From: a virus
Strand: one strand, 5' to 3'
Length of the DNA stretch: 57,481 bases
IMG/VR virus record: IMGVR_UViG_3300045988_031383
Coordinates: 1-57,481 of that record
Shown in pieces: positions 11,679 to 57,481 of this stretch. The number at the start of each line of letters is the position of its first letter. The first letter of the stretch is position 1. The translations under genes were made by a program, and so were the position numbers. The notes beneath the pieces are model-generated. The model saw nothing but the letters and a program-made list of their open reading frames with translations, had not been told where the DNA came from and searched no databases.

Positions 11679-12463
11679 TGCCTTTAAAGCCTGGATATTT
11701 TATGATCAACGGATACAAGTCTGAAGATTATCATGTATTTATCCAAGATCGACCAGATATAGAAACACCTAAACGACGTGTGACTTTCGAGTCACCAAAT
11801 GGCTACGAAGGAGAGTTGGCTTTTGACGATGAAGGTTATGAGCCAACCGAATTCGAGCTAAGCTGTTTCTATGACGGACGAAGTCATAATGACTCGGATC
11901 GAGATATTTCATTAGCCCGTAATAGAATCAATTTTCTATTTAATAATGGGATCGGTAACTGGATTGACTTTATTCCATATTTCGATCAAAGTCATATTTA
12001 CAAAGTTATCATGACAGAAATCACATACGAGAACAAATACTTCTATCAAGGTTGTATTTCGTTCAAAGTGAAACTTAAATGTCAGCCGTTTAAATATAAC
12101 GTTGATAACCAACCACGAGTTGTTACTTCTGGTGAGGTTATTGACAATCCTAATTTATATTTCTCCAGACCAACAGTACAATTCTCTGGAGTTACGGGTA
12201 ACTTGAAAATTTCTATTGGATCTACTGCTATGACAATTAAGGATATGCAAAACGAGACAATCGTCATTGATAGCACTCGTTATATTGTATATTCTAAGTC
12301 AGGATCCACGATCACAAACAAAAACAACAATACTGTGGGGAAAGAGTTCTTTAAACTTGAGCCAGGAAATGATCTCCGGACTAACCGGGTATATTTCACA
12401 GCCACTAAGGGTACTGCTCCGGCTACGATAACTCTAACCCCTAATTGGAGGGTATTAGTTTGA
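11672..12463 (+). CDS. Distal tail protein (Dit)
   Basis: The ATG overlaps the TMP stop (ATGGTGATG). ..GYFMINGYKSEDYHVFIQDRPDIETPKRR.. is typical of Sipho_tail family proteins. It immediately follows the TMP. Confidence 0.85.
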   Translation: MVMPLKPGYFMINGYKSEDYHVFIQDRPDIETPKRRVTFESPNGYEGELAFDDEGYEPTEFELSCFYDGRSHNDSDRDISLARNRINFLFNNGIGNWIDFIPYFDQSHIYKVIMTEITYENKYFYQGCISFKVKLKCQPFKYNVDNQPRVVTSGEVIDNPNLYFSRPTVQFSGVTGNLKISIGSTAMTIKDMQNETIVIDSTRYIVYSKSGSTITNKNNNTVGKEFFKLEPGNDLRTNRVYFTATKGTAPATITLTPNWRVLV

Positions 12464-15400
12464 GACCAATTTTATATGAACAGAACGAACGGGTCTTTGA
12501 TACTAATGGTATGGGGATCTTATACGACGCCATATCTGCAGAAGTCACTGAAGTTCGTAATGCAGAATTTGAGCTTGAACTAAAATATCCTGTCGGTGGA
12601 GAGTGGGCCCAAGCGCTCACTCAAAACCGTTATATTTTGGTTAAGCCAAACGACTATGATGAACCTCACGCATTTCGTATTTACGAGATTGAGAAAGAGG
12701 TTGATTCAAACCAAATTACGGTTAAGGGTGTTACTAAGACTGACGAATTGTCTGGTAATGTCATCAAACCACTCTCAATTAAATCTGCAACACCGTCTGG
12801 AGCTTGGGAACAACTCAAACGTGTAGCTGTGGATCCAATTGAGTACAACTTTATTTCCGATATTCAAACAGCAAAAGATACAAACATGGATATCCGTAAT
12901 GTGTTGAACGCTATTGCCGGAGAAGAAGGATCGTTTATTGACACTTGGGGTGGAGAAATTAAACGTACTAACAATACGATTTTCTTATATTCCAAACGTG
13001 GGAAAGATCATGTTACAACAATCCGACCTCGTAAGAATCTCAAGAATGTAAAAGTCAAATCGTCTATGGCTGGTAAATTCACTCGTATTTTACCTTATGT
13101 GACATTCACTCCTGAAGGCGAGAATGAACCAGAACAAGTAATCTATGGGGATATTATCAAGTCTCCACACTACGACGATTATTTCGTCAAACGTATTGTG
13201 CCTCTTGATTTGAGCTCGGAGTTTAACGACTCTTCAACGCATAAAGAGGGTGAAGAAGCCAAAAAGAAAGCTCCCACACCAGCTCAAGTTACAGCCAAAG
13301 CACAATCATATTTCACATCTAAGAACAAAGATGCTGATAAACCGGATTTGAGTGTCGAAGTTGAGATGATTCCTCTCCAAGACTCTACTGAATGGGATCG
13401 TCGGATCATTCAAGCTTTGGAGAAGATCCAACTTTGTGATACTGTTGATGTGTATGTACCGAAGATTGACTGCGACGTTACTGTCAAAGTCCGTAAGATT
13501 GTGTATGACGCTCTCCGTGAGCGAATCATCAAAATCGAGGCAAGTTCCAGTGGGTCTGGTCGAGCTAGCTTGGCTGATCAGCAGAAAGCCCAATGGCAAG
13601 ACTTGACAAACAAGATCGTCAACAATGCTCTCTACGGAGAGAAGGATGGGTTAATCCATACAATCCTAACCAGCGCTAACAACAAGAACAAAAACTTCTA
13701 TGGACCTGAGGAACCTCCTCGTGAGAAGGTATCCAAAGACGACTTGTGGTTTAAACCTGTTGGTGGTGAGGGCGAAGTTGAGATGTGGCGTTTTGATGGT
13801 GAGAACTGGGTTCTTGTCATCGACGCAAACTTTGGACAGAAGGTAACTGACAAAGTTAATGACGCTATTAACTCGGCTAAACAGGATATCAATGCCAATG
13901 TGCAAGCTACTGTTAACGCTGCTCTTGCTGATGCCGAGAAGAGATGGCGACCAGATCTTACCCCAATACAGAACGAGCTTGACGAGAAACTTAAGAAAAT
14001 CGACGACGACATTAATGTCAAAGTTAGTGATATTAAAGACCAACTAGCTTCCCAACTAGAACGAATCAAACCAGGAAATCCTAACTTACTTGATGGTACT
14101 TTGGAGATGAATAGTGGGGATGGTACCGATTGGAATGTTGTCCAAGGCGGCGGAGGAATGCAAAATGGCCAAATCCTCGGCGCTCGTAATATATTAATTG
14201 ACGAGATCGCAGGGCAACTGTACAATAACTATTTCAGTATGCCTTTTACACCTAAAAGTTATACAGTACCATATACTTGGTCATTCTTTGTTAAAAACAC
14301 AAGTACGAATAATGGTAAGATTAAGTTAACTCCATATTTTTCCGACACTAAAGTTACTGTCAACGGAGAGGACTTGGCACCAACTGGTGGTGAGGCTATA
14401 TTTGACGTTCCTCCTGGGACTGAGAAGTATGTGACAGTAACCTATCCTAGTCTTGGTAATAATGATATCCAATTACAAATCCGAGAAATCGGTCTACGTG
14501 ATGGCACAAACTTATACACATACAAGTGGAAAGTTGAAGAAGGGACCAAAGCTACTGGCTGGGTACCTAGTGCTGCTGATGGAGAACAGAAGTGGAAGAA
14601 TTACAAATCCACTGTCGACGGTGATTTGGCATCTATGAAGAGACGGATTACTGACACTGAGGGTCGTGTGACCACAAACTCCACTGAGATCCAACATCTC
14701 AATACTGGATTGGCTGCTAAAGCTGATCAAGAAACAGTAAACCATCTCGATGGCCAGATTGAAAGTGCTAAAGCAGAACTAAACTTGGTTCCAAACAAGA
14801 TTTCCACTGCTATAAGCCAATACAAGTCAACTGTTGATGGACAGATCTCGAAGGTGTCAACCTCTATTGACCAGAAGGCTAATGAAATCAAAATCGCTGC
14901 ACAAAACCTAGAGAAGAAGGTTGATGGGAATGCGACGAATACCGCTGCGGAACTAAGGGTTATCAAAGACTCAATTTCTGCTAAGGTATCTCGTACGGAT
15001 TTGGATACAGTCAGTGGGAAAGTTACTGCTGTTGAGACAAACTTAACTGCTAAGATCGACGGTATCAAGACTTCGGTCGACAAGGTTACTCGAGATGTGG
15101 ATGGTAAGATCACTTCCGCTGTATCCTCAGCTATCACTCAATCTGAGAACGGACTAAGATCTCAGATCAACTCGGTTAACGAGGCCGCTCAAATTGGTAT
15201 TGCGAATTTATCAAGCAATGCTATACCTAGTGCTATATCTAATGCCAAACAATACACCGACACCCAATTCAGTCAAGTGGATGGTAAAATCCAAACCCAA
15301 ATCAACACCAGACTAGTTGATTATGCTAGAACTTCTGATATTGCAACTCGGGTTACTCAGGAAGCCGGTCGAATCAAGACGGAATTAACATCGGTTATTG

Positions 15401-17544
15401 ACCAGAAAATTCCTAAGAAATACGGTAGTCGAAACTTACTCACTAAGACTAAGGAAGAAATCAATTTCAATGGACCACTTAAAAACCCACAAGATAATAA
15501 TGCCTGGGATGTAATTAGTGGATATTGGTTTATCGACAAAAAGACCCTAAAAGAACGTGGGTATAAAGTCGGTGACCGTATGAATATCCAATTCAAGACT
15601 CGTACGACCACTCCTGGTATCACATCCATGCGGGTTTCTCCTGAAGTTTATAGTGGTGGCGGTTATTTGCAATGGATTAATGGATCTAACCCATTTGGAT
15701 TACCACGAGAATACAACAAAGACGAATGGGATGTCTCTACGTCAGATACATACAAAACCAAAATTGGTTGGTTTAATATCTCAGAGAATTCTCTTAATAA
15801 CGGTATGCAAATCCGATTCCGTGTTGATGCCGGTAATAAAGCTGCTGGTACTGTTGTCGCGGTTGATATTAAAGATGCGATGATGTGGGATGGAGACTTA
15901 TGGACGGATTATGCTCCGGCATATGAGGATATTGACCTCGATTCGAGTGAGAAATTCCAAGAAGTCCTACAGACCGTTGATATTTACAAACGTACTCTCG
16001 GTACAACTCAAAACGGGATCACCACGTCTATTTCCCAGTTAATCCAGTCAAGTGATGAGATCAAAACAGTTATCACCAATGCGTCACAATCAACCGATAA
16101 CTTGATTGTCGATACGGACACATTCTTATCCGCAAAATTAAGTAACTTCACTAACGGAGTTGATGGATACACGACATCTACCAGACCTGGAAATTACGGA
16201 AGTGCCGAGTATTTCTATTTTTCTAAAGGCAGTTACGATGGAACATATTCAAACAATTCCGCATTTGTGTCATTACCTCTGGTTATAGACAAAATGGAAG
16301 ATGGTGATAAGTATACTTTCTATTGTAAATACCACATGGATGCAACCGGAGTTTATCGAGGCAATAAAGATATGAATGTCGAATTGCAAATCATCGATAA
16401 CAACGGAACGCCGGTATATACTAAAGGACTGACAGCACAACCTGGCTATCAATACCAAACCTATACCAAAGATACATTCGATGTAGTTGGTCAGCATATA
16501 TTCGATAATGTCAATGGATATAACGGACGATTCTCATTCCGAATCAAATTAACTGGTGAAGGTCGAATTGGTATTAAGGAGATTATGTTGGTACGTGGAG
16601 AAACTGTTGGACGGTACAAACCATCTGGTGGTGTATCCTCAACTATCATATCTCAAAAGAACGATGCTTGGGCATTAAGCCTATCCGGCCCTAAAGATGT
16701 AATCACTTCGATTAATGCTGATACTTCTGGCGTACGACTCAAAGGTAAAAGCATTGTTCTTGATGGTGATGTTATTGCTAACGGCACAGCATTTATCAAA
16801 GAGAGTTGGATTGAGGATTTGAATGCTAGTAAGATTACTGCTGGTACGATTAATGCTTGGCAAGTCAAGATTGTTAATATGGATGCAAGTAATATTGTCA
16901 CTGGGACTATGAGCGCCTCTCGACTTCGAGGCGGTGAACTTAGGTCGTTAAATGATTTAACAGTATTTGATCTCGAGAGCGGCGCCCTTAATTTATATTC
17001 TAATACAGGAACTATTCGAAGAATCGATGACACAAACTCCTCGCAATTTCTTAAGATGACAAAAAGTGGTTTTATTGCTGAACGATTTAGAGATAGTAAT
17101 GCTGCTCAGATTGTTCTAGGCACAAACCATGATAAAACGGAAAGCACTGAGAACGCAACCTTTTCTGGACTAAGAATTTATTCAGGACAAGGTAAAGGCT
17201 ATAAAGAATCAGCTTTCGAGATTGTGTCTGACCGTATACACTTTTATTCCAATGGAGAATATCGTAGTCCGTGGGTTTTACATAATAATACTCAAGATGG
17301 AATGTCATTTTTTATGCCTATGAATGAAAGAAGTATAAAACATTATCTAGGTCGTGGCGATAAGCTTTTTGAAGGAGTCTATACAAAGAATCTTTATTTA
17401 GGAACTGGTGGACTTAATGCTGGTGGTTATCTATGGGATTTATTGACATGCTTCGGTGTTATTAGATCATATGGATGGGATCTTAAAAGTAAAGCCATTC
17501 AAAAACATATCGGTGATGTGCTAAATAAATACCATTTTAAATAG
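12460..17544 (+). CDS. Tail-associated lysin-like protein / tail fibre fusion (Tal), about 1694 aa
   Basis: GGAGGG lies 7 nt upstream of TTG 12460, in a TTGA overlap with the Dit stop. The N-terminus RPILYEQNERVFDTNGMGILYDAISAEVTEVRNAEFELELKYP.. matches prophage-tail endopeptidase N-domains. It continues with long coiled-coil Thr/Ser/Asn-rich repeats and C-terminal ITAGTINAW..NIVTGTMSASRL fibre motifs. Confidence 0.85.
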   Translation: MRPILYEQNERVFDTNGMGILYDAISAEVTEVRNAEFELELKYPVGGEWAQALTQNRYILVKPNDYDEPHAFRIYEIEKEVDSNQITVKGVTKTDELSGNVIKPLSIKSATPSGAWEQLKRVAVDPIEYNFISDIQTAKDTNMDIRNVLNAIAGEEGSFIDTWGGEIKRTNNTIFLYSKRGKDHVTTIRPRKNLKNVKVKSSMAGKFTRILPYVTFTPEGENEPEQVIYGDIIKSPHYDDYFVKRIVPLDLSSEFNDSSTHKEGEEAKKKAPTPAQVTAKAQSYFTSKNKDADKPDLSVEVEMIPLQDSTEWDRRIIQALEKIQLCDTVDVYVPKIDCDVTVKVRKIVYDALRERIIKIEASSSGSGRASLADQQKAQWQDLTNKIVNNALYGEKDGLIHTILTSANNKNKNFYGPEEPPREKVSKDDLWFKPVGGEGEVEMWRFDGENWVLVIDANFGQKVTDKVNDAINSAKQDINANVQATVNAALADAEKRWRPDLTPIQNELDEKLKKIDDDINVKVSDIKDQLASQLERIKPGNPNLLDGTLEMNSGDGTDWNVVQGGGGMQNGQILGARNILIDEIAGQLYNNYFSMPFTPKSYTVPYTWSFFVKNTSTNNGKIKLTPYFSDTKVTVNGEDLAPTGGEAIFDVPPGTEKYVTVTYPSLGNNDIQLQIREIGLRDGTNLYTYKWKVEEGTKATGWVPSAADGEQKWKNYKSTVDGDLASMKRRITDTEGRVTTNSTEIQHLNTGLAAKADQETVNHLDGQIESAKAELNLVPNKISTAISQYKSTVDGQISKVSTSIDQKANEIKIAAQNLEKKVDGNATNTAAELRVIKDSISAKVSRTDLDTVSGKVTAVETNLTAKIDGIKTSVDKVTRDVDGKITSAVSSAITQSENGLRSQINSVNEAAQIGIANLSSNAIPSAISNAKQYTDTQFSQVDGKIQTQINTRLVDYARTSDIATRVTQEAGRIKTELTSVIDQKIPKKYGSRNLLTKTKEEINFNGPLKNPQDNNAWDVISGYWFIDKKTLKERGYKVGDRMNIQFKTRTTTPGITSMRVSPEVYSGGGYLQWINGSNPFGLPREYNKDEWDVSTSDTYKTKIGWFNISENSLNNGMQIRFRVDAGNKAAGTVVAVDIKDAMMWDGDLWTDYAPAYEDIDLDSSEKFQEVLQTVDIYKRTLGTTQNGITTSISQLIQSSDEIKTVITNASQSTDNLIVDTDTFLSAKLSNFTNGVDGYTTSTRPGNYGSAEYFYFSKGSYDGTYSNNSAFVSLPLVIDKMEDGDKYTFYCKYHMDATGVYRGNKDMNVELQIIDNNGTPVYTKGLTAQPGYQYQTYTKDTFDVVGQHIFDNVNGYNGRFSFRIKLTGEGRIGIKEIMLVRGETVGRYKPSGGVSSTIISQKNDAWALSLSGPKDVITSINADTSGVRLKGKSIVLDGDVIANGTAFIKESWIEDLNASKITAGTINAWQVKIVNMDASNIVTGTMSASRLRGGELRSLNDLTVFDLESGALNLYSNTGTIRRIDDTNSSQFLKMTKSGFIAERFRDSNAAQIVLGTNHDKTESTENATFSGLRIYSGQGKGYKESAFEIVSDRIHFYSNGEYRSPWVLHNNTQDGMSFFMPMNERSIKHYLGRGDKLFEGVYTKNLYLGTGGLNAGGYLWDLLTCFGVIRSYGWDLKSKAIQKHIGDVLNKYHFK

Positions 17545-39707: not shown

Positions 39708-39905
39708 TTAAGATCGAACGTAAATGGGACCATGATAGACGAGGGCATAATATTGTTATCCACACAATCCATAAAGATCCTGGTCCTGTATGGAGTGGTG
39801 TAGAGGCGATGTATATATTTGATGAGAGCGATATTCAATCTCTTCTTATAGGTCGTTCGGGAATGAAAGATATTAAAGTAAATGTTAACGGAGGGAAGTA
39901 TAACA

Positions 39906-40808
39906 ATGACTGATAAATTAACACCAAAATCAATGGAAGACCAATACGAACACCAACTTGAGACGTTCAAACGCAAAAATCACGACTATGGGAACTCATT
40001 TGAGAAGAGTTTAGACACCTTCGGATTGGTGGCTGGCATCGTCCGTATGAACGACAAATTCGAGCGCTTAGTTTCACTCAATGATCCTTCTAAACGCGCT
40101 CAGATCGCCTCTGAGAGCCTTGTAGACACCTTAGAAGACCTGTCTAACTACGCTGCGATGGCTGCGTGCTGGTTGAAGGGTAAAAAGGCGGCTGAATGGA
40201 AGGAATTACGCCTTAAAGAGCTTGATGGAAACATTGAGGATATTATTAAGAAGGCGGATACTTCGGTTGTGAAATCTATCGATGAAACCAAATCAAAAGC
40301 TATGGTTTTTATGCCCGGTCGTCGTGATGGCAAAACCGTTTCTCTCCAAAAAGCAATTGAAGAAGGCCTTGCGGATAAGGGTATTAAATACCAACCACAG
40401 TTCTCTGGGATTTCTTTGAAAGGCCCTGAGAAACTTGAGTTAAATCTCGAAGTTGACCAGGATAAATTATTTGAAATCTCAAACGCACTGCATCCTAGTA
40501 CATTGCCTAAATCCGTTAAGGTGGATTATGGTCATAAGGCCGTGTATGAATTCCCTGATGGCATCGACGCAATCTCGTATTACATTCGTGAGATGCAAAA
40601 AGAAGAAACTAAAAAGGAAAACGATCGCGTTATGCTTGATATGATGTTATCTCGTATCGAGAAAGGCGAGGTTGTTCGTATTGTGGCTAATGGAGATGGA
40701 TCTTTCACTACATATTTCGAGAAGACTGATTGTCCTTTCAATAAAATTGTAGATAAGGAAGGTGAATCCATTTTCTTCGAGAAAGAAGGACTTGACGATG
40801 ACGAATAA
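39906..40808 (+). CDS. DUF1599 / MazG-like all-alpha nucleotide pyrophosphohydrolase-like domain fused to an unknown C-terminal domain
   Basis: ACGGAGGGAAG upstream of ATG 39906. ..FKRKNHDYGNSFEKSLDTFGLVAGIVRMNDKFERLVSL.. matches the KN.DYG..F...G..G...R..DK..R pattern. Confidence 0.6.
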   Translation: MTDKLTPKSMEDQYEHQLETFKRKNHDYGNSFEKSLDTFGLVAGIVRMNDKFERLVSLNDPSKRAQIASESLVDTLEDLSNYAAMAACWLKGKKAAEWKELRLKELDGNIEDIIKKADTSVVKSIDETKSKAMVFMPGRRDGKTVSLQKAIEEGLADKGIKYQPQFSGISLKGPEKLELNLEVDQDKLFEISNALHPSTLPKSVKVDYGHKAVYEFPDGIDAISYYIREMQKEETKKENDRVMLDMMLSRIEKGEVVRIVANGDGSFTTYFEKTDCPFNKIVDKEGESIFFEKEGLDDDE

Positions 40809-41406: not shown

Positions 41407-41413
41407 ATTTCGT

Positions 41414-41433
41414 CCCCCAAAAATTTTTGGGGG
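41414..41433. repeat. Perfect 20-bp palindrome CCCCCAAAAATTTTTGGGGG
   Basis: Read directly from the sequence. It lies in the 250-bp non-coding region upstream of the replication genes. Confidence 0.95.
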
Positions 41434-41489
41434 ATTCGCCTACCCCACCATTTTTATTATACTATTTTAGAGTTTGGTTCGGACGATCA

Positions 41490-41584: not shown

Positions 41585-41632
41585 TTATATATAAAACAAT
41601 GGGCTTTTGGGGGGCGATTTTGGGATCGCGGG

Positions 41633-41641: not shown

Positions 41642-41658
41642 AGCGATAGGAGGTATAA

Positions 41659-44600
41659 ATGGATTTTTTGGACGTCACCGTCAAAAAGTTCACTTCCAAT
41701 AACAGATCGTGTGATTACGAGGTGTCGCCCGACTTCATTTTTGGTGATGCCAAAGATTTAGTCGTAAAGGGTGGCAAGTTCTACGCTTATTGGAATGGAC
41801 ATAGATGGGACACATTACAACGAAACTTATTTCACGATATTGATAGTCTATTGTGGAATGAAGCAAAAGAACTTCGAGAGAAGAACCCTGGGTTAAGAAT
41901 TGAAGTAAAAGAAATTCGGAAAGCTTCTGGTGGAAAGTTCCGATTATTTATTGACTATTGTAAAGCCACCGAACAGAATGATATTCCATTCAATCAGAAA
42001 GTATTGTTCGCTGATCATAAAATGCAGAGACGAGATTATGCAACTTCACAATTATCGTATTCTCCAACTGAAGGAGAACCCGTAGCATTTATGAAATTGC
42101 TCGGCACTTTATATGCCCCAGCAGAACTAGACAAGATTCTTTGGTTCATGGGCGCCTTATTTACCAACAACATGTACAAGATCGAAAAGTTCATGTATTT
42201 GTATGGTTCAAAAGGTAGTGGTAAAGGAACTGTACTCAAGATATTCAGATGGTTGTTTGAAGATTATTGCGGAACTATCGATTTGAAATTACTTACCAGT
42301 AACGACCCATTCGCAACTGGACAAATTAAAGAAGTTCCATTGTTGATTGATGAAGATACAGACATCAGTCATATTTATAATGACACCCCATTATTGAAAC
42401 TGACAAGTCATGAAACTATTTCTGTCAACCAAAAGTACAAAGAACAATATGACGTTACATTTAGCGGTTTACTTATTACTGCATCAAACCAACGATATAA
42501 AGTTCGAAATGTCGACTCAGGTATTACTAGACGTGCCGTGGTTGTAAATCCAAGTGGCAACAAAGTTCCCCATAAAGATTATATTTCGTTGATGAATCAA
42601 ATCAAATACGAGTTACCCTATATTGCTAATATCGCAATTAGTCGATTTGAGCAATTAGGATTCGATTATTTTGATGATTACTTCGACGTTGACATGGCCG
42701 AGCAGACAGACCATATCTTTGATTTTATTCGAAGTGAAGCGATGCAAATGAAAGATGGTATTAGTCTTAAACAAATTTCGGAGCTTTACAAGAATTATCT
42801 TGAAGACATGGGATGGAAAACTGATGGATATAAAGCCACGATCAAACGTGAAGCCCTTAGATATTTTGATACGATGGTTAAAGATACAAACATCGATGGC
42901 GTTCGTATTAAGAATTTCTTTAAAGGTTTCCGATGGTCTATAGCATTTCCCGAAGGTGTCGTCTCCGAGGACATTACAGAGAATAAAGTTATAGATTGGC
43001 TAGACTTTTGTTATCGTAATGAGGTGTTTAATAAATTAGCTGAAAATTACCCGGCACAAGAAGCTTTAAGTAATGGTAACCCGTCAAAGAAATGGGATGA
43101 GGTTACCACAACTCTAAAAGAAATTAATACCAAGAAATTGCACTGGGTTAAAGTTCCACTACAACATATTGTTCTCGACTTTGATATAAAGGACGAGAAT
43201 GGAGAGAAAAGTTTAGAGCTTAATAAAAAAGCTGCAGCGAAGTATCCACAAACATATGCCGAAGTATCTAAATCTGGGAAGGGAATTCATCTACATTATT
43301 TGTACGATGGTGATGTTAATAAATTAGACAACCTAGTTGAAGATAATGTCGAAATTAAAGTTTATAAAGGGAAGGCGTCTTTACGAAGGATTGATAATGC
43401 ATCGAATGATCTTGAAGTATCTCATATTTCGTCGGGATTGCCGATGAAAGAGAAGAAGGAGATAGTGATGTACGACACTGTAAAAGATATTACCTATACG
43501 GAGAAGACCCTCCGAAAATTCGTTAAGAAACAGTTAGGACTAATTCCGGGAGAAAAACCGAGCCACGCAAATACGAAACCAACGATCGATTGGATTGCTC
43601 ACGAAATTCATAAAGCATACGACATGGGATTACAATACGATATTACAGACTTGAAGCATTCAGTATTTCTTCGAGCATTACAATCCTCTAACCAAAAAGA
43701 TTATTGCTTGGAAGTATTTTCCAAAATCCCATGGTCTTCAATTCGAGATGACGATGGGAAGACAGAATACGAATTGACAACTGGTACACAAATTGTGGCC
43801 AAGGAAGAAATTGTGTTCTTCGATATTGAGGTATATCCAAATCTGTTTGTCGTTGTGTGGAAGAAATATGGTGAAGACGAATTCACTCGTTGGGTAAATC
43901 CTACTCCGGATCAAATTGAGTACTTGTGTACATTTCCTCTGATTGGTTTCAACAATCGTCGATACGATAATCATATCTTGTATGCTCGGTTACTTGGTGG
44001 AACCAATATGGAATTATTTAATCAGTCGCAACGTATCATCAATGAAAAGAATGCGAAGACTGGAATGTATGCTGCAGCTTATGAATTAAGTTATGCCGAT
44101 ATTTACGAGTACTCACAAAAGAAACAATCATTGAAACGTTGGGAAGTTGATTTAGGAATTAAACACGTTGAGATGGAAATTCCCTGGGATCAACCAGTGC
44201 CTGACGATTTAGTTGACACTGTTGTGGAATACTGTGTAAATGACGTGGACGCAACTGAGAAAGTATTCGATGCAACCTATGCAGATTATATTGCTCGAGA
44301 AATTCTTGCGACCATTACAGGCGGAAGTATGAATGCGACAAATAATCAGCTTACCGCTCGATTCATTTTCGGAGATGATCCTCGTCCTCAGGATAAATTT
44401 AATTATGTAAAATTAGCTGAGACATTCCCTGGATACGAATACAAGTTCGGTAAATCTACATATCGTGGATTTGAAACTGGTGAAGGTGGATTTGTATATG
44501 CTGAACCAGGAGTATATAAAGATATTGCCCTGATCGACGTTGAGTCAATGCACCCGAACAGTTTGGTTAATATGAATTACTTCGGACCATATACTCAACG

Positions 44601-45480
44601 ATATGCTGACTTGCTGAAAGTTCGCATTTTGCTCAAGCATGGAAAGATTGACGAAGTTAAACAAATGTTTAATGGATCTTTGGCTCCGTTCTTGGACGAT
44701 GATCAATATATGAAACCGTTGGTTACTGCTTTGAAGATTGTTATTAATTCGGTTTACGGAATGACTTCCGCTTCGTTTGATAATAAATTCAAGCACCCAG
44801 ACAATATTGATAACATCGTCGCAAAACGTGGAGCTTTATTCATGGTCGATCTTAAATTCGCAGTTGAGGCTGAGGGATATCAGGTCTGTCATATTAAGAC
44901 CGACTCAATTAAAATTCCTAACGCTGATGATTATATCGTTGACTTCGTTATGAAATTCGGTAAACGCCCAGAGTACAATTATAATTTTGACCACGAGCAC
45001 ACATATAAACGCATGGCCCTTATTAACAATGCCGTTTATATTGCTCAACTTGAAGACGACAAGTGGGCGCCAACAGGAGCTGAGTTCGCAAATCCATATC
45101 TACTTAAGCGGGTATGGACAAAAGAAGAATTGGTTGATAAAGATTTCTTCATCACCAAACAATCCAAAGGTCATATCTATCTTGGAAACGAGTTTGTTGG
45201 AAAAGTTGGATCTATTTATGCATCTCTCACTGGAGAAGAATGCATGTGGACTGAAGATAACGAGAACTTTAAATCCGTTACGGGTACAAAAGGATTCAAA
45301 TTCAAACAAACTTCAGAATTCAACTATGAAGATATCGACTTTGACTACTACGATAAGGTTGCTATTGCTGGTCTTAAGAAAATTATTAAGGTTGGTGATA
45401 TTAATCAAATCGTTGACGACATGCCGAAGGATTATATTGAGCCATTAGGTCTCAATGAGCAAAATTCTGAGGTTGCTTAA
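41659..45480 (+). CDS. Fusion of an SF3 (D5/P4-type) helicase, an AEP PrimPol and a family-B DNA polymerase with 3'-5' exonuclease (1273 aa)
   Basis: Walker A GSKGSGKGT (aa ~183) and Walker B LLIDEDTD with ..LKLTSHETISVNQKYKEQ..GITRRAVVV. PrimPol motifs VLDFDIKD (aa ~506) and SKSGKGIHLHY (aa ~540). ExoI FFDIEVYP (D722/E724), ExoII NNRRYD, ExoIII YCVNDVDAT. PolB motif A DVESMHPNS (aa ~960), motif B KIVINSVYG (aa ~1026), motif C KTDS (aa ~1080). Confidence 0.85.
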   Translation: MDFLDVTVKKFTSNNRSCDYEVSPDFIFGDAKDLVVKGGKFYAYWNGHRWDTLQRNLFHDIDSLLWNEAKELREKNPGLRIEVKEIRKASGGKFRLFIDYCKATEQNDIPFNQKVLFADHKMQRRDYATSQLSYSPTEGEPVAFMKLLGTLYAPAELDKILWFMGALFTNNMYKIEKFMYLYGSKGSGKGTVLKIFRWLFEDYCGTIDLKLLTSNDPFATGQIKEVPLLIDEDTDISHIYNDTPLLKLTSHETISVNQKYKEQYDVTFSGLLITASNQRYKVRNVDSGITRRAVVVNPSGNKVPHKDYISLMNQIKYELPYIANIAISRFEQLGFDYFDDYFDVDMAEQTDHIFDFIRSEAMQMKDGISLKQISELYKNYLEDMGWKTDGYKATIKREALRYFDTMVKDTNIDGVRIKNFFKGFRWSIAFPEGVVSEDITENKVIDWLDFCYRNEVFNKLAENYPAQEALSNGNPSKKWDEVTTTLKEINTKKLHWVKVPLQHIVLDFDIKDENGEKSLELNKKAAAKYPQTYAEVSKSGKGIHLHYLYDGDVNKLDNLVEDNVEIKVYKGKASLRRIDNASNDLEVSHISSGLPMKEKKEIVMYDTVKDITYTEKTLRKFVKKQLGLIPGEKPSHANTKPTIDWIAHEIHKAYDMGLQYDITDLKHSVFLRALQSSNQKDYCLEVFSKIPWSSIRDDDGKTEYELTTGTQIVAKEEIVFFDIEVYPNLFVVVWKKYGEDEFTRWVNPTPDQIEYLCTFPLIGFNNRRYDNHILYARLLGGTNMELFNQSQRIINEKNAKTGMYAAAYELSYADIYEYSQKKQSLKRWEVDLGIKHVEMEIPWDQPVPDDLVDTVVEYCVNDVDATEKVFDATYADYIAREILATITGGSMNATNNQLTARFIFGDDPRPQDKFNYVKLAETFPGYEYKFGKSTYRGFETGEGGFVYAEPGVYKDIALIDVESMHPNSLVNMNYFGPYTQRYADLLKVRILLKHGKIDEVKQMFNGSLAPFLDDDQYMKPLVTALKIVINSVYGMTSASFDNKFKHPDNIDNIVAKRGALFMVDLKFAVEAEGYQVCHIKTDSIKIPNADDYIVDFVMKFGKRPEYNYNFDHEHTYKRMALINNAVYIAQLEDDKWAPTGAEFANPYLLKRVWTKEELVDKDFFITKQSKGHIYLGNEFVGKVGSIYASLTGEECMWTEDNENFKSVTGTKGFKFKQTSEFNYEDIDFDYYDKVAIAGLKKIIKVGDINQIVDDMPKDYIEPLGLNEQNSEVA

Positions 45481-45512
45481 AATTGATTTTCGCGCAGGGT
45501 CATTTTGGACCC

Positions 45513-45536
45513 CGCAGAAATTACATGGCACATAAT
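45513..45536 (+). promoter_or_regulatory. Promoter P6 (CGCAG-N13-CATAAT)
   Basis: cgcagaaattacatggcacataat, preceded by the inverted repeat GGGTC attttg GACCC. Confidence 0.6.
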
Positions 45537-45537
45537 A

Positions 45538-45586
45538 GAGAGGGAAGTGGAAAAAACTCGAATTTTTCACTCCTCTCATTGTTTTT
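45538..45586 (+). terminator. Promoter-proximal hairpin plus T-tract (leader terminator / attenuator, or short RNA)
   Basis: GAGAGG..AGTG.AAAAA (45538-55) pairs with TTTTTCACTCCTCTC (45563-77) with two bulges, followed by ATTGTTTTT. Confidence 0.55.
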
Positions 45587-45620
45587 GAGTCACGCACGTC
45601 ATTTTAGAAAGGACATTACT

Positions 45621-46157
45621 ATGACTAAATTATTGCAAGCTTCAAATTCACAAATCATTTTGGAAGACGTTCAGTTTATGTTTAAACCGAACTTCGCAGG
45701 ACGACAAGAGAAATACAATCGTGAAGGCGATCGTTATTTCAACGTTGTTGTCAATCCTGAAGACGCGGATATTCTTCGGCAGTATGGAGTTAACGTAAAA
45801 GTATGGGAACCCAAAGCCAAAGATGCGGAAATGGAAAAGAAGATGGCCGAGAATCCTGACATGTACGAACCACAATGTTATTTCAAGGTTCGTGTATATA
45901 CTCAATTCTCAGTTCCATCAGTAGCTATCATTTATGATGACGGTGAAACTCCAATTGACGCCCCTATCGATCCAAGCCAACGTACATATTTCAACGAAGA
46001 TCAACTTGGTCTTATTGATGAAATGGAAATTGCCTTGTGCGATATGGTTATCCGTCGCCGCGAGCCAAGTGAAGATGGGACATATGCTCGTCTTGACTTG
46101 AAGAGTGCTTATATTCGCGTCGCAGCAAATCCACTTGAACGTAAGTATGGATTTTAA
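45621..46157 (+). CDS. Putative ssDNA-binding protein (DUF2815 / gp2.5-like)
   Basis: GAAAGGACATTACT upstream of ATG 45621. 178 aa. It sits between the polymerase and helicase, as in the DUF2800/DUF2815 replication modules of Bacillota phages. No diagnostic motif, so this is a synteny-based call. Confidence 0.45.
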   Translation: MTKLLQASNSQIILEDVQFMFKPNFAGRQEKYNREGDRYFNVVVNPEDADILRQYGVNVKVWEPKAKDAEMEKKMAENPDMYEPQCYFKVRVYTQFSVPSVAIIYDDGETPIDAPIDPSQRTYFNEDQLGLIDEMEIALCDMVIRRREPSEDGTYARLDLKSAYIRVAANPLERKYGF

Positions 46158-47332
46158 TGACTATTGAGTTATACGACTATCAGCGTAGGGCAGTTGATAG
46201 TATGCATAACGGATCTGTTTTGTGCGGGAAGGTCGGTTCTGGTAAATCCTTGACCGGCCTATTTTATTATATGGAGAACCATATTGATAAGCCGCTGTAT
46301 ATTATTACAGTTGCCAAGAAACGAAACGATCGTGAATGGCATAGAGATTTTGAAGCCTTAGGAATAAATGGTGTTGTCGATTCATGGAATAACATCAACA
46401 AGTATTCCGACGTAAAAGATGCGTTCTTTATTTTTGACGAACAAAGAGCGATTGGATACGGAACATGGGGAATGGCATTTATATCAATTGCCAGAAAGAA
46501 TAAATGGATAATGCTCACCGCGACGCCTGGTGATGTTTGGATGGATTGGATGTGTATTTTCATAGCCAATAATTTCTATCGAAACAAAACCGATTTTGTT
46601 GAACAACATGTCGAGTACAATCCATATTCAAAATTCCCTCAAATCAAGCGATATCATAAAACAGATAAGCTTGAAAGATACAGACGATATCTTGCAGTGC
46701 CCATGGAAGATTTTAGAACTACAAAAGTTCATCGTCAATTTATTACTGCTCAGTATGATAAAGAATTATATGAGCAAGTAAAGAAAACCAGGTTCAATCC
46801 ATTTACGGAAGAACCAATACAAAATGCTTCCGAGTTTACTCAAGTATTACGTCGTATAGTAAATACTAGCGATCGTAGGCGAGCAAATGTGAAGCAACAA
46901 ATTATGACTCGTGATCGAATCATAGTTTTCTACAACTATACCTATGAGCTTGATATTCTCAAAGAGATTTGTCAAGAATTAAATAGGGCATTTTATCAAT
47001 GGAACGGCAGTAAACATGAGCCAATACCTGATACCGATAGTTGGGTATATCTGGTTCAGTACACGGCCGGGGCTGAGGGATGGAATTGTATAACTACTGA
47101 CACGATTTTATTCTATTCGTTAAATTATTCCTATCGAATTATGGAACAATCCGAAGGACGAATTAATCGAGTGAATACCTCCTTTAAAGATCTTTTCTAC
47201 ATTTATATGAAATCCCCAGCCTCAATTGATGATGCTATCGCTAGATCTATATCTAGCAAAAAGAAATTTAACGAAAGGAATTGGGTGACCCACGAATGTC
47301 CAAATTGGAGCGAGATTTTCAAAAAGGATTGA
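46157..47332 (+). CDS. SF2 (DEAD/SNF2-like) DNA helicase
   Basis: Motif I GKVGSGKS, motif II FIFDEQ, motif III LTATPG, motif VI QSEGRINR. Confidence 0.85.
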   Translation: MTIELYDYQRRAVDSMHNGSVLCGKVGSGKSLTGLFYYMENHIDKPLYIITVAKKRNDREWHRDFEALGINGVVDSWNNINKYSDVKDAFFIFDEQRAIGYGTWGMAFISIARKNKWIMLTATPGDVWMDWMCIFIANNFYRNKTDFVEQHVEYNPYSKFPQIKRYHKTDKLERYRRYLAVPMEDFRTTKVHRQFITAQYDKELYEQVKKTRFNPFTEEPIQNASEFTQVLRRIVNTSDRRRANVKQQIMTRDRIIVFYNYTYELDILKEICQELNRAFYQWNGSKHEPIPDTDSWVYLVQYTAGAEGWNCITTDTILFYSLNYSYRIMEQSEGRINRVNTSFKDLFYIYMKSPASIDDAIARSISSKKKFNERNWVTHECPNWSEIFKKD

Positions 47333-47601
47333 TTAAAGACATCAAGCAGTTATTTCCTAACGCGATTGTCAAGAAGAATGATCCAAACTATATTCAAGGA
47401 ATTCCTGACCTGTCTGTGGATGTCGGGCCATATTCCTATCACTTAGAGTGCAAGAAAAGCGCCAAGAGTCCGTTTAGACCAAATCAAGAGTATTATCTTG
47501 AGCAGTACAATAAAAACGGAGGATGGGCGAGAGTGATTTATCCGGAGAATAAGGAGGATGTTCTGCATGAAATGGAACAGACACATCGAATACGAGGGTA
47601 A
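47296..47601 (+). CDS. VRR-NUC domain nuclease
   Basis: ..IQGIPDLSV...YHLECKKS....RPNQ....YNKNGGWARVIY.. matches the D..(E)xK..Q pattern of VRR-NUC. ATG at 47296. Confidence 0.7.
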   Translation: MSKLERDFQKGLIKDIKQLFPNAIVKKNDPNYIQGIPDLSVDVGPYSYHLECKKSAKSPFRPNQEYYLEQYNKNGGWARVIYPENKEDVLHEMEQTHRIRG

Positions 47602-48142
47602 GCACTCATTTTTAAGTGCTAGTCAGTGTCACTGGTTAAATTACAGTCCAGAGAAATTGGTTGAGCGTTTTGAAAACGAAAAAGCTAAACAACGAGGAAC
47701 AGAATTACACGAATTTGCGAGTCATGCGATTCAACATAGAATTAAATTACTCCCAGGTAATACTCATCCAGCTGTGGCTAATTTCGTAAATGATGCAATC
47801 GGATATCGCATGGATAGTGAAGTACTATTATTTTACAGTCCATATGCATTCGGTACAGCAGATGCTATCCGATATGATCCGCCAAAGAAAGATAATCCAC
47901 GAGGATTTCTTAGAATTCATGATTTGAAGACTGGAGTATCCAAACCAAAGATGGAACAGCTATTAGTTTATGCTGCTTATTTCTGTCTTGAGTATGGCGT
48001 TAAACCTGAGAAAACTGATTTTGAACTTCGTATTTATCAAGGCGATGATATTCGTACATATATTCCAGAGGCGGAAGATGTGTATGATGTATATCACACA
48101 ATTAAAGAATTCAGTGGAATACTTGAAAGCAAACCGAGGTAA
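47567..48142 (+). CDS. PD-(D/E)XK nuclease (DUF2800 / RecB-Cas4-like exonuclease)
   Basis: ..HSFLSASQCHWLNYSPEKL.., ..GTADAI.. and ..IHDLKTG.. (D...DxK). GGAGG lies 9 nt upstream of ATG 47567. Confidence 0.7.
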   Translation: MKWNRHIEYEGKHSFLSASQCHWLNYSPEKLVERFENEKAKQRGTELHEFASHAIQHRIKLLPGNTHPAVANFVNDAIGYRMDSEVLLFYSPYAFGTADAIRYDPPKKDNPRGFLRIHDLKTGVSKPKMEQLLVYAAYFCLEYGVKPEKTDFELRIYQGDDIRTYIPEAEDVYDVYHTIKEFSGILESKPR

Positions 48143-48145
48143 ATA

Positions 48146-50791
48146 ATGAATCTTGAAGATGCATATAATGATTTTCTAGAACATAGAGGAACTCCTCACC
48201 AAGGATCTATTCCACATAGTGGACGATTTGCTTGGGGTTCGGGAGAGAATTCATATCAACGTGCGACTTCCTGGTCAGATGTCGTTGCTAAATACCGTAA
48301 GAGCGGATTAACTGATACTCAAATTTCTATGAAGCTTGGTATCACAACGACCGAATTCCGTTCTCGTAATAATATTGCCAAGCACGAAATTCGTAAATAC
48401 AACATTAGTCGTATTCAAGAATTATCTGCAAAAGGCATGACTTCTATTGAGATTTCTCGGGCAACTGGTATTCCAGAATCTACAGTTCGTATGAATTTGG
48501 ATGCTAAAGTTCGTCATAATGTAAATCGAATGGAAGAAATTAAGACTGATATTAAGGGATTGATTGAAAAGAATCCATATCTTGACGTTGGTCTTGGTGC
48601 AGCTCAACAATTAGGAGTAAATGAGAATACTCTTAAACGTGCGGTACAACAATTAGAATCCGAAGGATATCACAAACATACAGTATATGTTAAGAATGCT
48701 ACAAATGATGATCACTGGGTCGAAATGAAAGTTCTTACAAAAGAATCAGATCCAAATGTTGTTCGTGAACATAAGCATGAAATCAAACCACCATTTATTT
48801 CTGAGACTGATGATGGAAAAAGTGTATTAGGATTACGTCCAATTGAACATGTTGATTGGAAACGTGTAGGAATTCGATATGCTGAACAAGGTGGTACGGA
48901 TAAAGATGGTGTAATGGAATTACGTCCAGGAGTAAAAGATCTTGATCTTGGTAAATCCCGTTATGCTCAAGTTCGTATTGGTGTAAATGGTACGCATTAT
49001 CTTAAAGGTATGGCTGTTTATGGAGATCCAAAAGATTTTCCAAAAGGCGTCGATATTATTTTCAATACCAATAAACATAAAGGTACTGCAAAAGAAGATG
49101 TCTTGAAGAAATTAAAGGACGATCCAGATAATCCATTCGGTGCAACAATTAAAGTTGGTGGACAAAAAGGTGCTATCAACAAAGTAAATGAAGAAGGTGA
49201 CTGGGCTAGCTGGTCTAAAACATTATCTTCTCAATTTGTTTCCAAACAACCACCAGCTTTGGTTAAAGGTCGTATTGATGAAACATATAAAAAGCTACAG
49301 AAAGAGTTTGATGAGATTTCTAATCTAACAAATCCTGTAGTTAAACGTGTAATGATGCAGGATTTTGCTGATGGTCTTACAACCAAACGGCATAATCTTA
49401 AATTGACTGGGTTCGATAGAATGAAAGGTCAAGTATTATTACCTTTATCTGGAATTAAAGCTAACGAAATCTATGCTCCTAATTTTAAAAACGGTGAGAA
49501 AGTAGTTCTTGTTCGATATCCTCATGGTGGTATTTTCGAATTACCAGAATTAACTGTTAATAATAAATTAGGAAACACTGCAGCTAAATTCATGAAGGGC
49601 GCAAAAGATGCAGTCGGAATTGATTCGTCTGTTGCATCTAAATTATCTGGTGCTGATTTCGATGGTGACTCAGTTATGGTTATTCCTAATAATAAAAACG
49701 GAATTAAAACAAGTCGTTCATTAAAAGAATTAAAGAACTTTGATACGAACGATTATTATTCTCCAGATAAAAACATTTTAAATCGTAATTCAAAAGGTGA
49801 CTGGACAATTAAACAGAAAACGATGGGCGAAGTTTCAAATCTTATTACCGATATGACTTTGAAAGGAGCATCAAATAGTGAAATTGCTAGAGCCGTAAAG
49901 CATTCGATGGTCGTCATCGATGCTGAAAAACATAATTTAGATTATAAAAGATCTGAAAGAGAAAACGGTATTCCAGAATTACGAAAAAGATATCAGATGC
50001 ATTACGATGTTATTACTGGTACTACAAAAATGGGAGCCTCAACTCTTATTTCTAGATCAAAAACAGATCATAGAGAAACAGAGACCTGGGAAAAACCACG
50101 TACTGCAGAAGAACTAGCCGCAAATCCTAGATTGAAACCTACTGTTAAGAAAACTAAAACAGTTTCTACAGATAGTGTAATTGAACTAGTTGATGATGCT
50201 AAGAAACTAGGTTCTGGTACTCCTATTGAAAATATGTATGGAGATTATGTAAATGCTCTTGGTAAAATGAGGGATAAAGCTAATAAAATTGTAGAGACAT
50301 CTCCTAATCTTAAGCTCAGCAAAGAGGCAAGAGTTAAGTATAAGGATCAAGTTGAGTCTCTACAACACAAGCTTAATACTGCCCTTATGAACTCTCCTAA
50401 AGAACGTCAAGCTCAGCTCATAGCTAACAAAGCTATTGCTGATAAACGTACTCCTGAGATGGGTAAAGAACAACTTAAGAAGCTCAAACAACAGGCTATT
50501 GCAGCAGCCCGTCTAAAGACTGGTGCTGATGGAGCTGGTACTCGTATCAACATAGACAATGATGAGTGGCAAGCTATCCAGTCTGGTGCTGTAAGTACTA
50601 AGATGCTTACTGATGTACTACGCTTTGCTGATAGTGATCGTGTTAAGCAACTGGCTACACCTCGTAAAGAGAAGGCTATTAGTCTTGGTACAGCTAGCAG
50701 AGCTAGAGCTATGCTTAAGAGTGGTCACACCTATGCTGAAGTAGCGTCTGCTCTAGGTATCAGTGTGTCTACTGTGCAAGACCTATCATAG
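48146..50791 (+). CDS. Candidate single-subunit two-barrel (double-psi beta-barrel, YonO-like) RNA polymerase with N- and C-terminal HTH domains
   Basis: Beta-like motif KVGGQKGAINKVN (aa 336-348). Beta-prime-like motifs VRYPHGGIFELP (aa 456-467) and GADFDGDSVMVIP (aa 502-514, the DxDGD metal loop). HTH-like segments at aa ~55-75, ~98-116, ~148-170 and ~860-880. Confidence 0.6.
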   Translation: MNLEDAYNDFLEHRGTPHQGSIPHSGRFAWGSGENSYQRATSWSDVVAKYRKSGLTDTQISMKLGITTTEFRSRNNIAKHEIRKYNISRIQELSAKGMTSIEISRATGIPESTVRMNLDAKVRHNVNRMEEIKTDIKGLIEKNPYLDVGLGAAQQLGVNENTLKRAVQQLESEGYHKHTVYVKNATNDDHWVEMKVLTKESDPNVVREHKHEIKPPFISETDDGKSVLGLRPIEHVDWKRVGIRYAEQGGTDKDGVMELRPGVKDLDLGKSRYAQVRIGVNGTHYLKGMAVYGDPKDFPKGVDIIFNTNKHKGTAKEDVLKKLKDDPDNPFGATIKVGGQKGAINKVNEEGDWASWSKTLSSQFVSKQPPALVKGRIDETYKKLQKEFDEISNLTNPVVKRVMMQDFADGLTTKRHNLKLTGFDRMKGQVLLPLSGIKANEIYAPNFKNGEKVVLVRYPHGGIFELPELTVNNKLGNTAAKFMKGAKDAVGIDSSVASKLSGADFDGDSVMVIPNNKNGIKTSRSLKELKNFDTNDYYSPDKNILNRNSKGDWTIKQKTMGEVSNLITDMTLKGASNSEIARAVKHSMVVIDAEKHNLDYKRSERENGIPELRKRYQMHYDVITGTTKMGASTLISRSKTDHRETETWEKPRTAEELAANPRLKPTVKKTKTVSTDSVIELVDDAKKLGSGTPIENMYGDYVNALGKMRDKANKIVETSPNLKLSKEARVKYKDQVESLQHKLNTALMNSPKERQAQLIANKAIADKRTPEMGKEQLKKLKQQAIAAARLKTGADGAGTRINIDNDEWQAIQSGAVSTKMLTDVLRFADSDRVKQLATPRKEKAISLGTASRARAMLKSGHTYAEVASALGISVSTVQDLS

Positions 50792-56663: not shown

Positions 56664-57481
56664 ATGGGAAAACATCCTAAGTATGATTTCGCGGGTTATG
56701 TAACCCGTAATGACATGCGTTGTACAGACGGTGTCACCATTCGTCATGGAGCATTTGCTGAGAACGATGGTAAAAAGGTTCCTCTGGTTTGGTCACACGA
56801 CCCGAGCACACCTGAAAATATCATCGGACATGTGCTATTGCATCATGCGGATGAGGGTGTTTATGGCGAAGGGTATTTCAACAATACTCAAAAAGCTATC
56901 AACGCCAAAGAACTCGTACAACATGGTGATATCATGTGTATGTCAATCGGAGCGAATCGTATTAAACGTACTCCGCAAAATGACGTTATTCATGGTAACA
57001 TCTATGAAGTATCGCTTGTGCTCGCAGGAGCTAATCCTGGAGCCGTAATTACAGAAGTGCTACAGCACTCTGATAATCCAGACGAAGGGGAAAGTATCGT
57101 AATGGAAAGTAACGAACTTATTCATTCAGCTAGCAATGTGTTGCTTGGCGATGAAACACGAGTTAGTGTATTCGATCGTATTCAACACGCTGAAGAAGGT
57201 ACTGAATCTGCGGTTCTTGATGAAGTATTGGGAACTCTTAACGAAGATCAACAAGAAGCAGTATCTATCTTGACTGAAGCGGCCGCTAATGCAGCTCTTG
57301 AAGCGCATGAAGCAGCTATTGATAAAGAATTTGAAAACGCTGTTGACGCTCGAGTAAATGAAATTCTTGATGAACTCGCAGCAGAAGCCGACGACGAAGA
57401 TAAAGAATCTGAAGAAATCGAACAATCCGACAAGGGAGGAACTTTGATGCACTATAACGCATTCGAACAAACATCTGCTAA
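56664..57481 (+). CDS. HK97-family (S78) prohead protease plus an acidic scaffold-like linker. This is the N-terminal part of the fusion with the major capsid protein. It has no stop in the window and continues in frame at nt 1.
   Basis: ..KKVPLVWSHDPSTPENIIGHVLL..GVYGEGYF..HGDIMCMSIGA.. gives the His and Ser of the S78 fold. This is followed by ~110 aa of Glu/Asp/Ala-rich helix. My hand translation to 57481 found no stop codon. Confidence 0.85.
   Translation, partial: MGKHPKYDFAGYVTRNDMRCTDGVTIRHGAFAENDGKKVPLVWSHDPSTPENIIGHVLLHHADEGVYGEGYFNNTQKAINAKELVQHGDIMCMSIGANRIKRTPQNDVIHGNIYEVSLVLAGANPGAVITEVLQHSDNPDEGESIVMESNELIHSASNVLLGDETRVSVFDRIQHAEEGTESAVLDEVLGTLNEDQQEAVSILTEAAANAALEAHEAAIDKEFENAVDARVNEILDELAAEADDEDKESEEIEQSDKGGTLMHYNAFEQTSA
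57427..57481. repeat. Second copy of the 55-nt terminal overlap (= 1-55)
   Basis: Exact identity with the window start. Confidence 0.95.

Follow-up and report, generated by a model that had tools for sequence, protein, structure and literature searches.

The closest characterized relative of the protein studied here is gp55 of Lactococcus phage 1706. Kazlauskas, Krupovic and Venclovas recognized it in 2016 as a fusion of a superfamily 3 (SF3) helicase, an archaeo-eukaryotic primase (AEP) and a DNA polymerase of family B (PolB), one of two fusions of helicase, primase and polymerase known at that time (PMC4889955). The other triple fusion they list is Pas55 of the Actinoplanes phage phiAsp2, formed by an SF3 helicase, a DnaG primase and a family-A DNA polymerase (PolA) (PMC4889955). 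We have analyzed a viral DNA of 57,481 nucleotides (IMG/VR record IMGVR_UViG_3300045988_031383, called the window from here on) which contains a gene of this type. The gene is located at 41659..45480 on the plus strand, as are the domains and ORFs given with coordinates below, and codes for a protein of 1273 amino acids (aa), followed by a TAA stop codon (45478-45480). We will call this protein the replicase. It clearly belongs to the GP55-type four-in-one replicases, as an orthologue of GP55.

GP55 has been purified by Zhang et al. (NAR, 2025), who describe it as a "four-in-one replicase" (PMC12205980). Its helicase, lost in a K189A mutant, depends on UTP or dTTP and confers strand displacement. 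The RNA primase prefers GTP and initiates within 5'-CCAAC-3'; it is lost in D509A. The DNA polymerase is lost in D949A, and the 3'-5' exonuclease in D712A/E714A. A newly recognized alpha-helical domain (aHD) is found between AEP and PolB and is required for priming. GP55 is mainly a dimer, as determined by size-exclusion chromatography with multi-angle light scattering (SEC-MALS), and its primase and polymerase cooperate in trans. More than 1000 homologues are present in nr, mostly from human-associated phages (PMC12205980). A search of the literature for later papers on GP55, or for a solved structure, has yielded nothing other than the 2025 paper.

The replicase and GP55 (orf55, YP_001828703) are collinear: BLASTP gives 47% identity with E = 0, aligning aa 1-1247 with 1-1298 of GP55 (98% coverage). 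PHROG 4210 also matches from end to end (1-1257 against 1-1290 of its 1304 positions, E = 0). The domain order is the same in both proteins: SF3 helicase, PriS-like AEP, aHD and the exonuclease and polymerase parts of PolB. The ATPase and the AEP are the most similar parts, with 58% and 57% identity, and the aHD is the most divergent, with 38%. The boundaries of the constructs used for GP55, 439/440 and 688/689, correspond to 442/443 and 693/694 in the replicase. Both proteins share the PolB signatures SxHPxS and KTDS, and their genes have a similar neighbourhood of replication genes. As for differences, an insertion of some 43 residues close to the C-terminus of GP55 is absent from the replicase, and GP55 comes from a Lactococcus phage, whereas the closest relatives of the replicase come from human saliva.

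The residues whose mutation inactivates GP55 can be followed one by one. K189 is also K189 in the replicase (K189A abolishes unwinding in GP55). D507 and D509 keep the same numbers (D509A abolishes priming), D712/E714 are D722/E724 (D712A/E714A abolishes the exonuclease), D949 is D960 (D949A abolishes the polymerase) and Y655 is Y660 (the Y655 mutant is inactive in priming). Six of the seven residues with inactivating mutations are conserved (K189, D509, D722, E724, D960 and Y660), and the conserved ones are invariant across an alignment of 18 family members. The seventh is F667, discussed below. An earlier note on this DNA, made from the letters alone, had implied that the fusion was new, which is not the case. 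It was described in 2016, characterized in 2025, has its own PHROG (4210) and is annotated as a matter of routine in SEA-PHAGES genomes. A fusion already published, studied biochemically and routinely annotated has little weight as a discovery.

The reading frame is uninterrupted. In the list of open reading frames (ORFs) it begins with ATG and runs for 1273 codons with no internal stops. A strong ribosome-binding site precedes it, the Shine-Dalgarno sequence AGGAGG at 41648..41653, read directly from the sequence 5 nt before the ATG. A sequencing or assembly error which fused separate genes for primase-helicase and polymerase, the usual state in most phages, might produce a frame of this kind, though nothing specific speaks for it. 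In a protein collection clustered at 90% identity, 492 clusters match the replicase at E <= 1e-5. Among the best 120 of them nearly all are full length, most with 1254-1293 aa; four are shorter (782-1171 aa) and span 61-90% of the replicase. Members of the best clusters are up to 96% identical to it, and many are found on independent contigs of 55-59 kb. In three contigs with a 91%-identical replicase, both the ORF and its neighbours are alike. A tblastn search against GenBank phages matches 432 records, and 252 of them span at least 80% of the replicase in one piece. Gaps between the replicase and its relatives are short (no more than 16 columns), except for a 43-residue C-terminal insertion which is only present in GP55.

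We have also compared aa 1-700 with 1.84 billion representatives of 50% clusters by phmmer (E <= 1e-30), which gives 242 matches. Among the best 150, 129 have 1202-1520 aa and the match lies in their N-terminal 700 residues, approximately: the helicase-primase half is almost always followed by an extension with the size of a polymerase. The other 21 have less than 1200 aa and could be split genes or fragments at the ends of contigs, which is the other point in favour of an artefact. On the other hand, the uninterrupted architecture recurs in hundreds of independent assemblies and in cultured phages, and GP55 could be produced and purified as one full-length protein. A frameshift or an assembly join is excluded by the presence of the same full-length ORF in many independent contigs and phage records, and the probability that we are dealing with such an error is practically nil. 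The single frame of 1273 aa from 41659 to 45480 in the earlier note is therefore borne out, both by the ORF and by its full-length homologues. Processing of the replicase as a polyprotein was also considered and rejected; there is little support for it.

The modules can be described in order. No separate model exists for the N-terminal region (aa 1-129, 41659..42045), located before the ATPase core, but it is conserved in the family: K37, G38, W45 and W50 are among its invariant residues. We can only infer its function. In GP55, the N-terminal deletion 1-439 removes what the authors call the "helicase domain", and this includes the equivalent of aa 1-129 (PMC12205980). Then comes the ATPase of a D5/P4-type SF3 helicase (aa 130-385, 42046..42813), identified with TIGR01613, DUF5906 and PHROG families. 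Its Walker A motif is GSKGSGKGT at 183 (K189) and its Walker B motif LLIDEDTD at 228 (D231); they are followed by sensor 1, or motif C, TASN (N277), and by an arginine finger, R291/R292 in ITRRAVVV at 289. All these motifs are invariant in the family. Pfam DUF5906 matches aa 181-292 with E = 1.1e-11 and 45.9 bits, above its gathering cut-off of 27.6, and aa 130-385 are matched by TIGR01613 of NCBIfam (the C-terminal domain of P4-family phage/plasmid primases) with E = 8.9e-18, which agrees with the SF3 ATPase proposed previously. Several PHROG primase-helicase families also match the replicase via their C-terminal halves. When aa 100-445 are compared with the Protein Data Bank (PDB) by phmmer, the only consistent match is the helicase region of C962R from African swine fever virus (ASFV), and it is a weak one (E = 0.05). 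Residues 582-754 of C962R align weakly, keeping both Walker motifs (A and B), motif C and the RR finger in register; this lends some support to a helicase, not decisive. The module ends with the C-terminal part of the helicase and a linker (aa 386-445, 42814..42993), placed by residue mapping, with N439 of GP55 equivalent to N442. Identity to GP55 is 40% over aa 331-445, and nowhere in the N-terminal half is conservation lower than in aa 386-445.

The catalytic domain of a PriS-like AEP of the PrimPol type follows at about aa 446-600 (42994..43458), supported by AlphaFold2 and Foldseek and by PHROG 3022. Motif I is DFD at 507 (D507/D509) and motif II SGKGIHLHY at 539 (H544/H546); the acidic residue of motif III is probably E565, judging from its spacing and invariance. 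PHROG 3022 ("DNA primase") matches with E = 7e-5. We have turned to fold comparison, because the sequence support for this domain is weak by itself. A model of aa 446-700, obtained with AlphaFold2 from a 15-sequence alignment, has a mean pLDDT of 79. Its ten best Foldseek matches in the PDB are all PrimPols, either NrS-1 N300 or pRN1 ORF904, with probability >=0.97 and E values from 1.8e-5 to 1.9e-3. The next match has E = 0.09, and unrelated folds appear from there on. The AEP PrimPol of the earlier note finds its confirmation here. The aHD occupies aa 601-693, approximately (43459..43737), according to the secondary structure of the model and the comparison with GP55. It has four helices in the model (aa 615-625, 639-655, 663-674 and 680-688), with pLDDT around 90 in the helices.

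The rest of the protein is a PolB. The 3'-5' exonuclease subdomain (about aa 694-900, 43738..44358) is identified by its motifs, by PHROG 1252 and by its fold. ExoI is DIE at 722 (D722/E724), ExoII is NNRRYD at 765 (N765, Y769 and D770) and ExoIII is YCVND at 858 (Y858 and D862), and the ExoI-III residues are invariant in the 18-member alignment. PHROG 1252 ("DNA polymerase") matches aa 707-905 with E = 2e-43. The polymerase subdomain (aa 901-1273, 44359..45477) is identified by a profile match to DNA polymerase II (Pol II), by NCBIfam models and by its fold. Motif A is DVESMHPNS at 960, motif B is KIVINSVYG at 1026 and motif C is KTDS at 1080. When the family profile is compared with PDB sequences, E. 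coli Pol II is found with E = 3.5e-5 over aa 934-1077, which span motifs A-C; it is the only protein found with the full-length profile. With the NCBIfam models of Pol II, the E value is about 2e-5. The AlphaFold2 model of aa 701-1273 has a pLDDT of 78 and 221 Foldseek matches in the PDB at E <= 1e-3. The best 50 of the 221 are all family-B polymerases; the best E value is 1.1e-15, for the 9N, KOD and Tgo polymerases. An exonuclease-proficient PolB, as proposed in the earlier note, agrees with both the Pol II profile and the fold.

All the motifs quoted in that note have been located in the sequence at the positions it gave. Its reading of three modules stands, but it overlooked the aHD between AEP and PolB.

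Several results weigh against this assignment of the domains. The TIGR01613 score, 64 bits, is below the curated cut-off of 108.7 for the whole P4-family domain. The Pfam Prim-Pol model only reaches E = 0.25 with the AEP (12.2 bits, under a cut-off of 22.8), and no Pfam DNA_pol_B model matches the replicase. Taken by itself, Pfam would have backed the ATPase module and no other. The matches found by fold for the AEP and PolB models have modest TM-scores, 0.3-0.5, since these multi-domain models are flexible. Finally, F667 of GP55, whose mutation inactivates priming, is not conserved: the position is occupied by R672 (43672-43674, in the aHD), and by R or K throughout the subclade of the replicase, while Phe is the commonest residue in other representatives. 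To judge from this substitution, the aHD may function somewhat differently. As several curated models stay under their cut-offs, the assignment of the modules rests on profile and fold evidence together with the homology to GP55.

One might suppose that one of the modules has degenerated into a remnant, such as a helicase-like domain used for oligomerization or DNA binding, or an inactive AEP, and that the replicase is not an enzyme with four activities. The replacement of F667, essential in GP55, by R672 would fit this idea, and so would the dimeric state of GP55, as SF3 helicases are typically hexamers. The PolB motifs are also non-canonical. Motif A (SMHPNS) has His, H965 (44551-44553), in the place of the canonical steric-gate Tyr, and aligns it with the Tyr of a Pyrobaculum PolB; motif C is KTDS instead of the canonical DTDS, with K1080 (44896-44898) aligned to an Asp of Pol II. 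These two deviations belong to the family. Among 129 full-length representatives, 118 have the Lys, and of the 101 which fit the pattern of motif A, 100 have the His. In fact, the active GP55 has identical PolB deviations, both the His of motif A and the KTDS of motif C. Its description makes no mention of a steric gate, motif C or DTDS (PMC12205980). The replicase has intact motifs throughout (Walker A and B, sensor 1, the arginine finger, AEP motifs I and II, ExoI-III and Pol motifs A-C), which do not vary in the family, and the neighbouring genes that we examined include no other primase and no other replicative polymerase. A degenerate module is, in our opinion, quite improbable.

We prefer to consider the replicase as an enzyme with the four activities of GP55, whose presence would follow from homology. 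The earlier note had proposed that one chain unwinds, primes, synthesizes and proofreads, and this has been demonstrated experimentally for the collinear GP55, with 47% identity; by analogy, it should also apply to the replicase. The gene very probably codes for the replicative enzyme of a siphovirus-like phage of about 57.4 kb. By comparison with GP55, AEP and aHD would make short RNA primers on a single-stranded template. The PolB site would extend these primers with dNTPs, either in cis or in trans from the partner subunit, with proofreading by the exonuclease. The N-terminal SF3 helicase would hydrolyze NTP and unwind the duplex ahead, leading to strand displacement and to stimulation of the polymerase. 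Some traits of GP55 may not carry over at 47% identity: the preference for UTP/dTTP, the dimer, initiation with GTP and the 5'-CCAAC-3' site.

A different possibility is that PolB starts synthesis by itself, either without a primer, like piPolB, or primed by a protein, like the phi29 polymerase, leaving a role in repair or translesion synthesis for the AEP. The GP55 paper likens its PolB motifs to those of phi29, and PrimPol-type AEPs act elsewhere in damage tolerance. The mutants of GP55 speak against it: D509A loses de novo synthesis and keeps primer extension, while a mutant with a dead PolB still makes RNA primers (PMC12205980). The best fold matches are also polymerases which extend primers (archaeal PolB, Pol alpha and Pol II), and no phi29 or other protein-primed PolB appears among the best 50 fold matches. 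No inverted terminal repeats are found at the ends of the window. We find a self-initiating PolB very hard to believe, and a replicase primed by its own AEP remains our choice.

Other known systems share parts of this architecture. NrS-1 primase-polymerase (PDB 6A9W and 6JOP) and pRN1 ORF904 (PDB 3M1M and 1RNI) have the PrimPol fold which best matches aa 446-700. Both of them contain AEP and an SF3-type helicase in one polypeptide, as the replicase does. In these proteins, the AEP is N-terminal to the helicase and is itself the DNA polymerase, with no fused PolB. They have a helix-bundle domain (HBD) after the AEP, where the replicase has the four-helix segment of the aHD. The Foldseek alignments of aa 446-700 cover the whole NrS-1 N300 chain, but with an rmsd above 12 Å. 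The aHD of GP55 is reported to have no homology to the HBD, and recognition sites also differ: GTG in NrS-1 and pRN1, CCAAC in GP55 (PMC12205980).

The SF3 ATPase is also present in the D5-type primase-helicases of vaccinia (D5) and ASFV (C962R) and in the alpha protein of phage P4, where Walker A and B, motif C and the arginine finger are the same. In all three the helicase comes after a primase (of AEP or DnaG type), without any attached polymerase. These proteins are hexameric, in contrast to the dimer reported for GP55. A primase N-terminal to the helicase is in fact found in 94% of fusions (PMC4889955), in agreement with the earlier remark that a helicase placed before the primase is unusual. 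In Pas55, which we know from its description, the DnaG-type primase and the family-A polymerase are not homologous to the modules found here. As for PolB, the fold and motifs of its exonuclease and polymerase are matched by archaeal PolBs (9N, KOD and Tgo), by E. coli Pol II and by stand-alone PolBs of Enterococcus siphophages such as IME-EF4. The archaeal enzymes, Pol II and the Enterococcus phage PolBs have neither helicase nor primase modules, and canonical PolBs have the steric-gate Tyr and DTDS, in contrast to His and KTDS in the GP55-type family.

The full architecture is widespread. The database search for it suggested in the earlier note has been carried out, and finds it in the 252 GenBank phage records and in hundreds of metagenomic clusters. 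Cultured phages which have it infect Lactococcus, Gordonia, Arthrobacter, Streptomyces, Microbacterium, Curtobacterium and Faecalibacterium. These homologues are usually annotated as "DNA primase/polymerase", an annotation which is routine in SEA-PHAGES genomes. Partial relatives also exist: stand-alone PolBs of Enterococcus siphophages have 26-27% identity over aa 710-1095, and phages of Klebsiella, Salmonella and Streptococcus have P4-type primase-helicases. In GenBank, the nearest genome belongs to Caudovirus D_HF5_2C (OR148986), from human saliva, and has 57.8 kb against 57.4 kb here. Aligned over 100% of the replicase, its protein WNL48727.1 ("DNA polymerase/primase") has 81% identity, and represents a sequence variant only. 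Gene order is the same, with genes for a ssDNA-binding protein, an SF2 helicase, nucleases and an RNA-polymerase-like protein of about 880 aa downstream. At the DNA level, similarity is found over 37% of a 12-kb test stretch, at 78% identity.

The replicase gene opens a replication and recombination block whose arrangement is conserved in relatives. It is followed by genes for a ssDNA-binding/annealing protein (45483..46157; PF24083, PHROG 4787), an SF2 helicase (46157..47332; PHROG 62), an endonuclease (47281..47601; PHROG 93) and an exonuclease (47558..48142; PHROG 3953, DUF2800-like). The TTG at 45483, assigned automatically as the start of the ssDNA-binding gene, is probably not the true one: with the ATG at 45622, which follows AAAGGA, the product would have a size close to the 181 aa of its counterparts in relatives.

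The next gene (48146..50791; PHROG 4291) codes for a protein of 881 aa similar to RNA polymerases. It matches PHROG 4291 ("RNA-dependent RNA polymerase") from end to end with E = 4e-302; there is also a weak match to a Pfam model of RNA-dependent RNA polymerase (RdRP), and helix-turn-helix (HTH) domains at both ends. Its aa 499-510, SGADFDGDSVMV, contain DbDGD, the motif with which two-barrel RNA polymerases bind metal. The protein is probably a single-subunit phage RNA polymerase similar to YonO. Its position is conserved in relatives, and the D_HF5_2C homologue is annotated as "putative transcription factor D5". Genes for holin, connector, TerL and portal come after it.

Two very long ORFs, 3876-11678 (2600 aa) and 12445-17544 (1699 aa), are found in the structural region, and presumably code for proteins of the tail or for tape-measure proteins; a length of 2600 aa is considerable for a phage of 57 kb. 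The first 55 bases of the window are identical to the last ones (1-55 and 57427-57481), an assembly overlap with the size of a k-mer. Identical ends of this kind indicate a complete contig, assembled as a circle (or permuted), and a phage genome with some 57,426 bp. We have found no tRNA genes in the window.

Upstream of the replicase, at a distance of about 850 nt and with smaller ORFs in between, an ORF of 308 aa (39882-40808; PHROG 1485) has an N-terminal DUF1599 ("nucleotide modification associated domain 1", E = 9e-7). The non-coding stretch before the replicase contains, within 41410-41434, a perfect 11+11 palindrome, TCCCCCAAAAA/TTTTTGGGGGA, at 41413-41434, and a sequence akin to it, TTTTGGGGGGCGA, is found 180 nt downstream, at 41605-41617. 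The palindrome could be a chance match, or else a regulatory or origin element. A search for an array of origin-like repeats between 40800 and 41800 only finds short two-copy repeats and small palindromes, and sites similar to promoters or terminators around the replicase gene do not exceed those found in shuffled sequences; none of this lends itself to interpretation. We have also tried CCAAC, the priming site of GP55, as a possible enriched sequence, and rejected it. It appears 129 times in the genome, against 80 +/- 8 in dinucleotide shuffles, but an order-3 Markov model expects 131: the apparent excess is due to tetramer content. CCAAC ranks 278th of 512 pentamers, so there is no specific enrichment.

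In summary, what remains new in this locus are small differences specific to its clade. There is a slight chance that the subclade differs from GP55 in function, as R672, the near-invariant His of PolB and KTDS might suggest. If so, these residues could mean a different way of initiating primers or handing them off, or a relaxed sugar selectivity suited to the extension of very short RNA primers. In any case, the window is a complete genome with a well-supported and moderately divergent orthologue of GP55 (47% identity), whose clade is frequent in metagenomes of the human mouth and gut. This orthologue may be used for comparative biochemistry and structures of single-chain replisomes, which would help to find out whether the UTP/dTTP-driven helicase, the CCAAC site, the dimer and other properties of GP55 are general.

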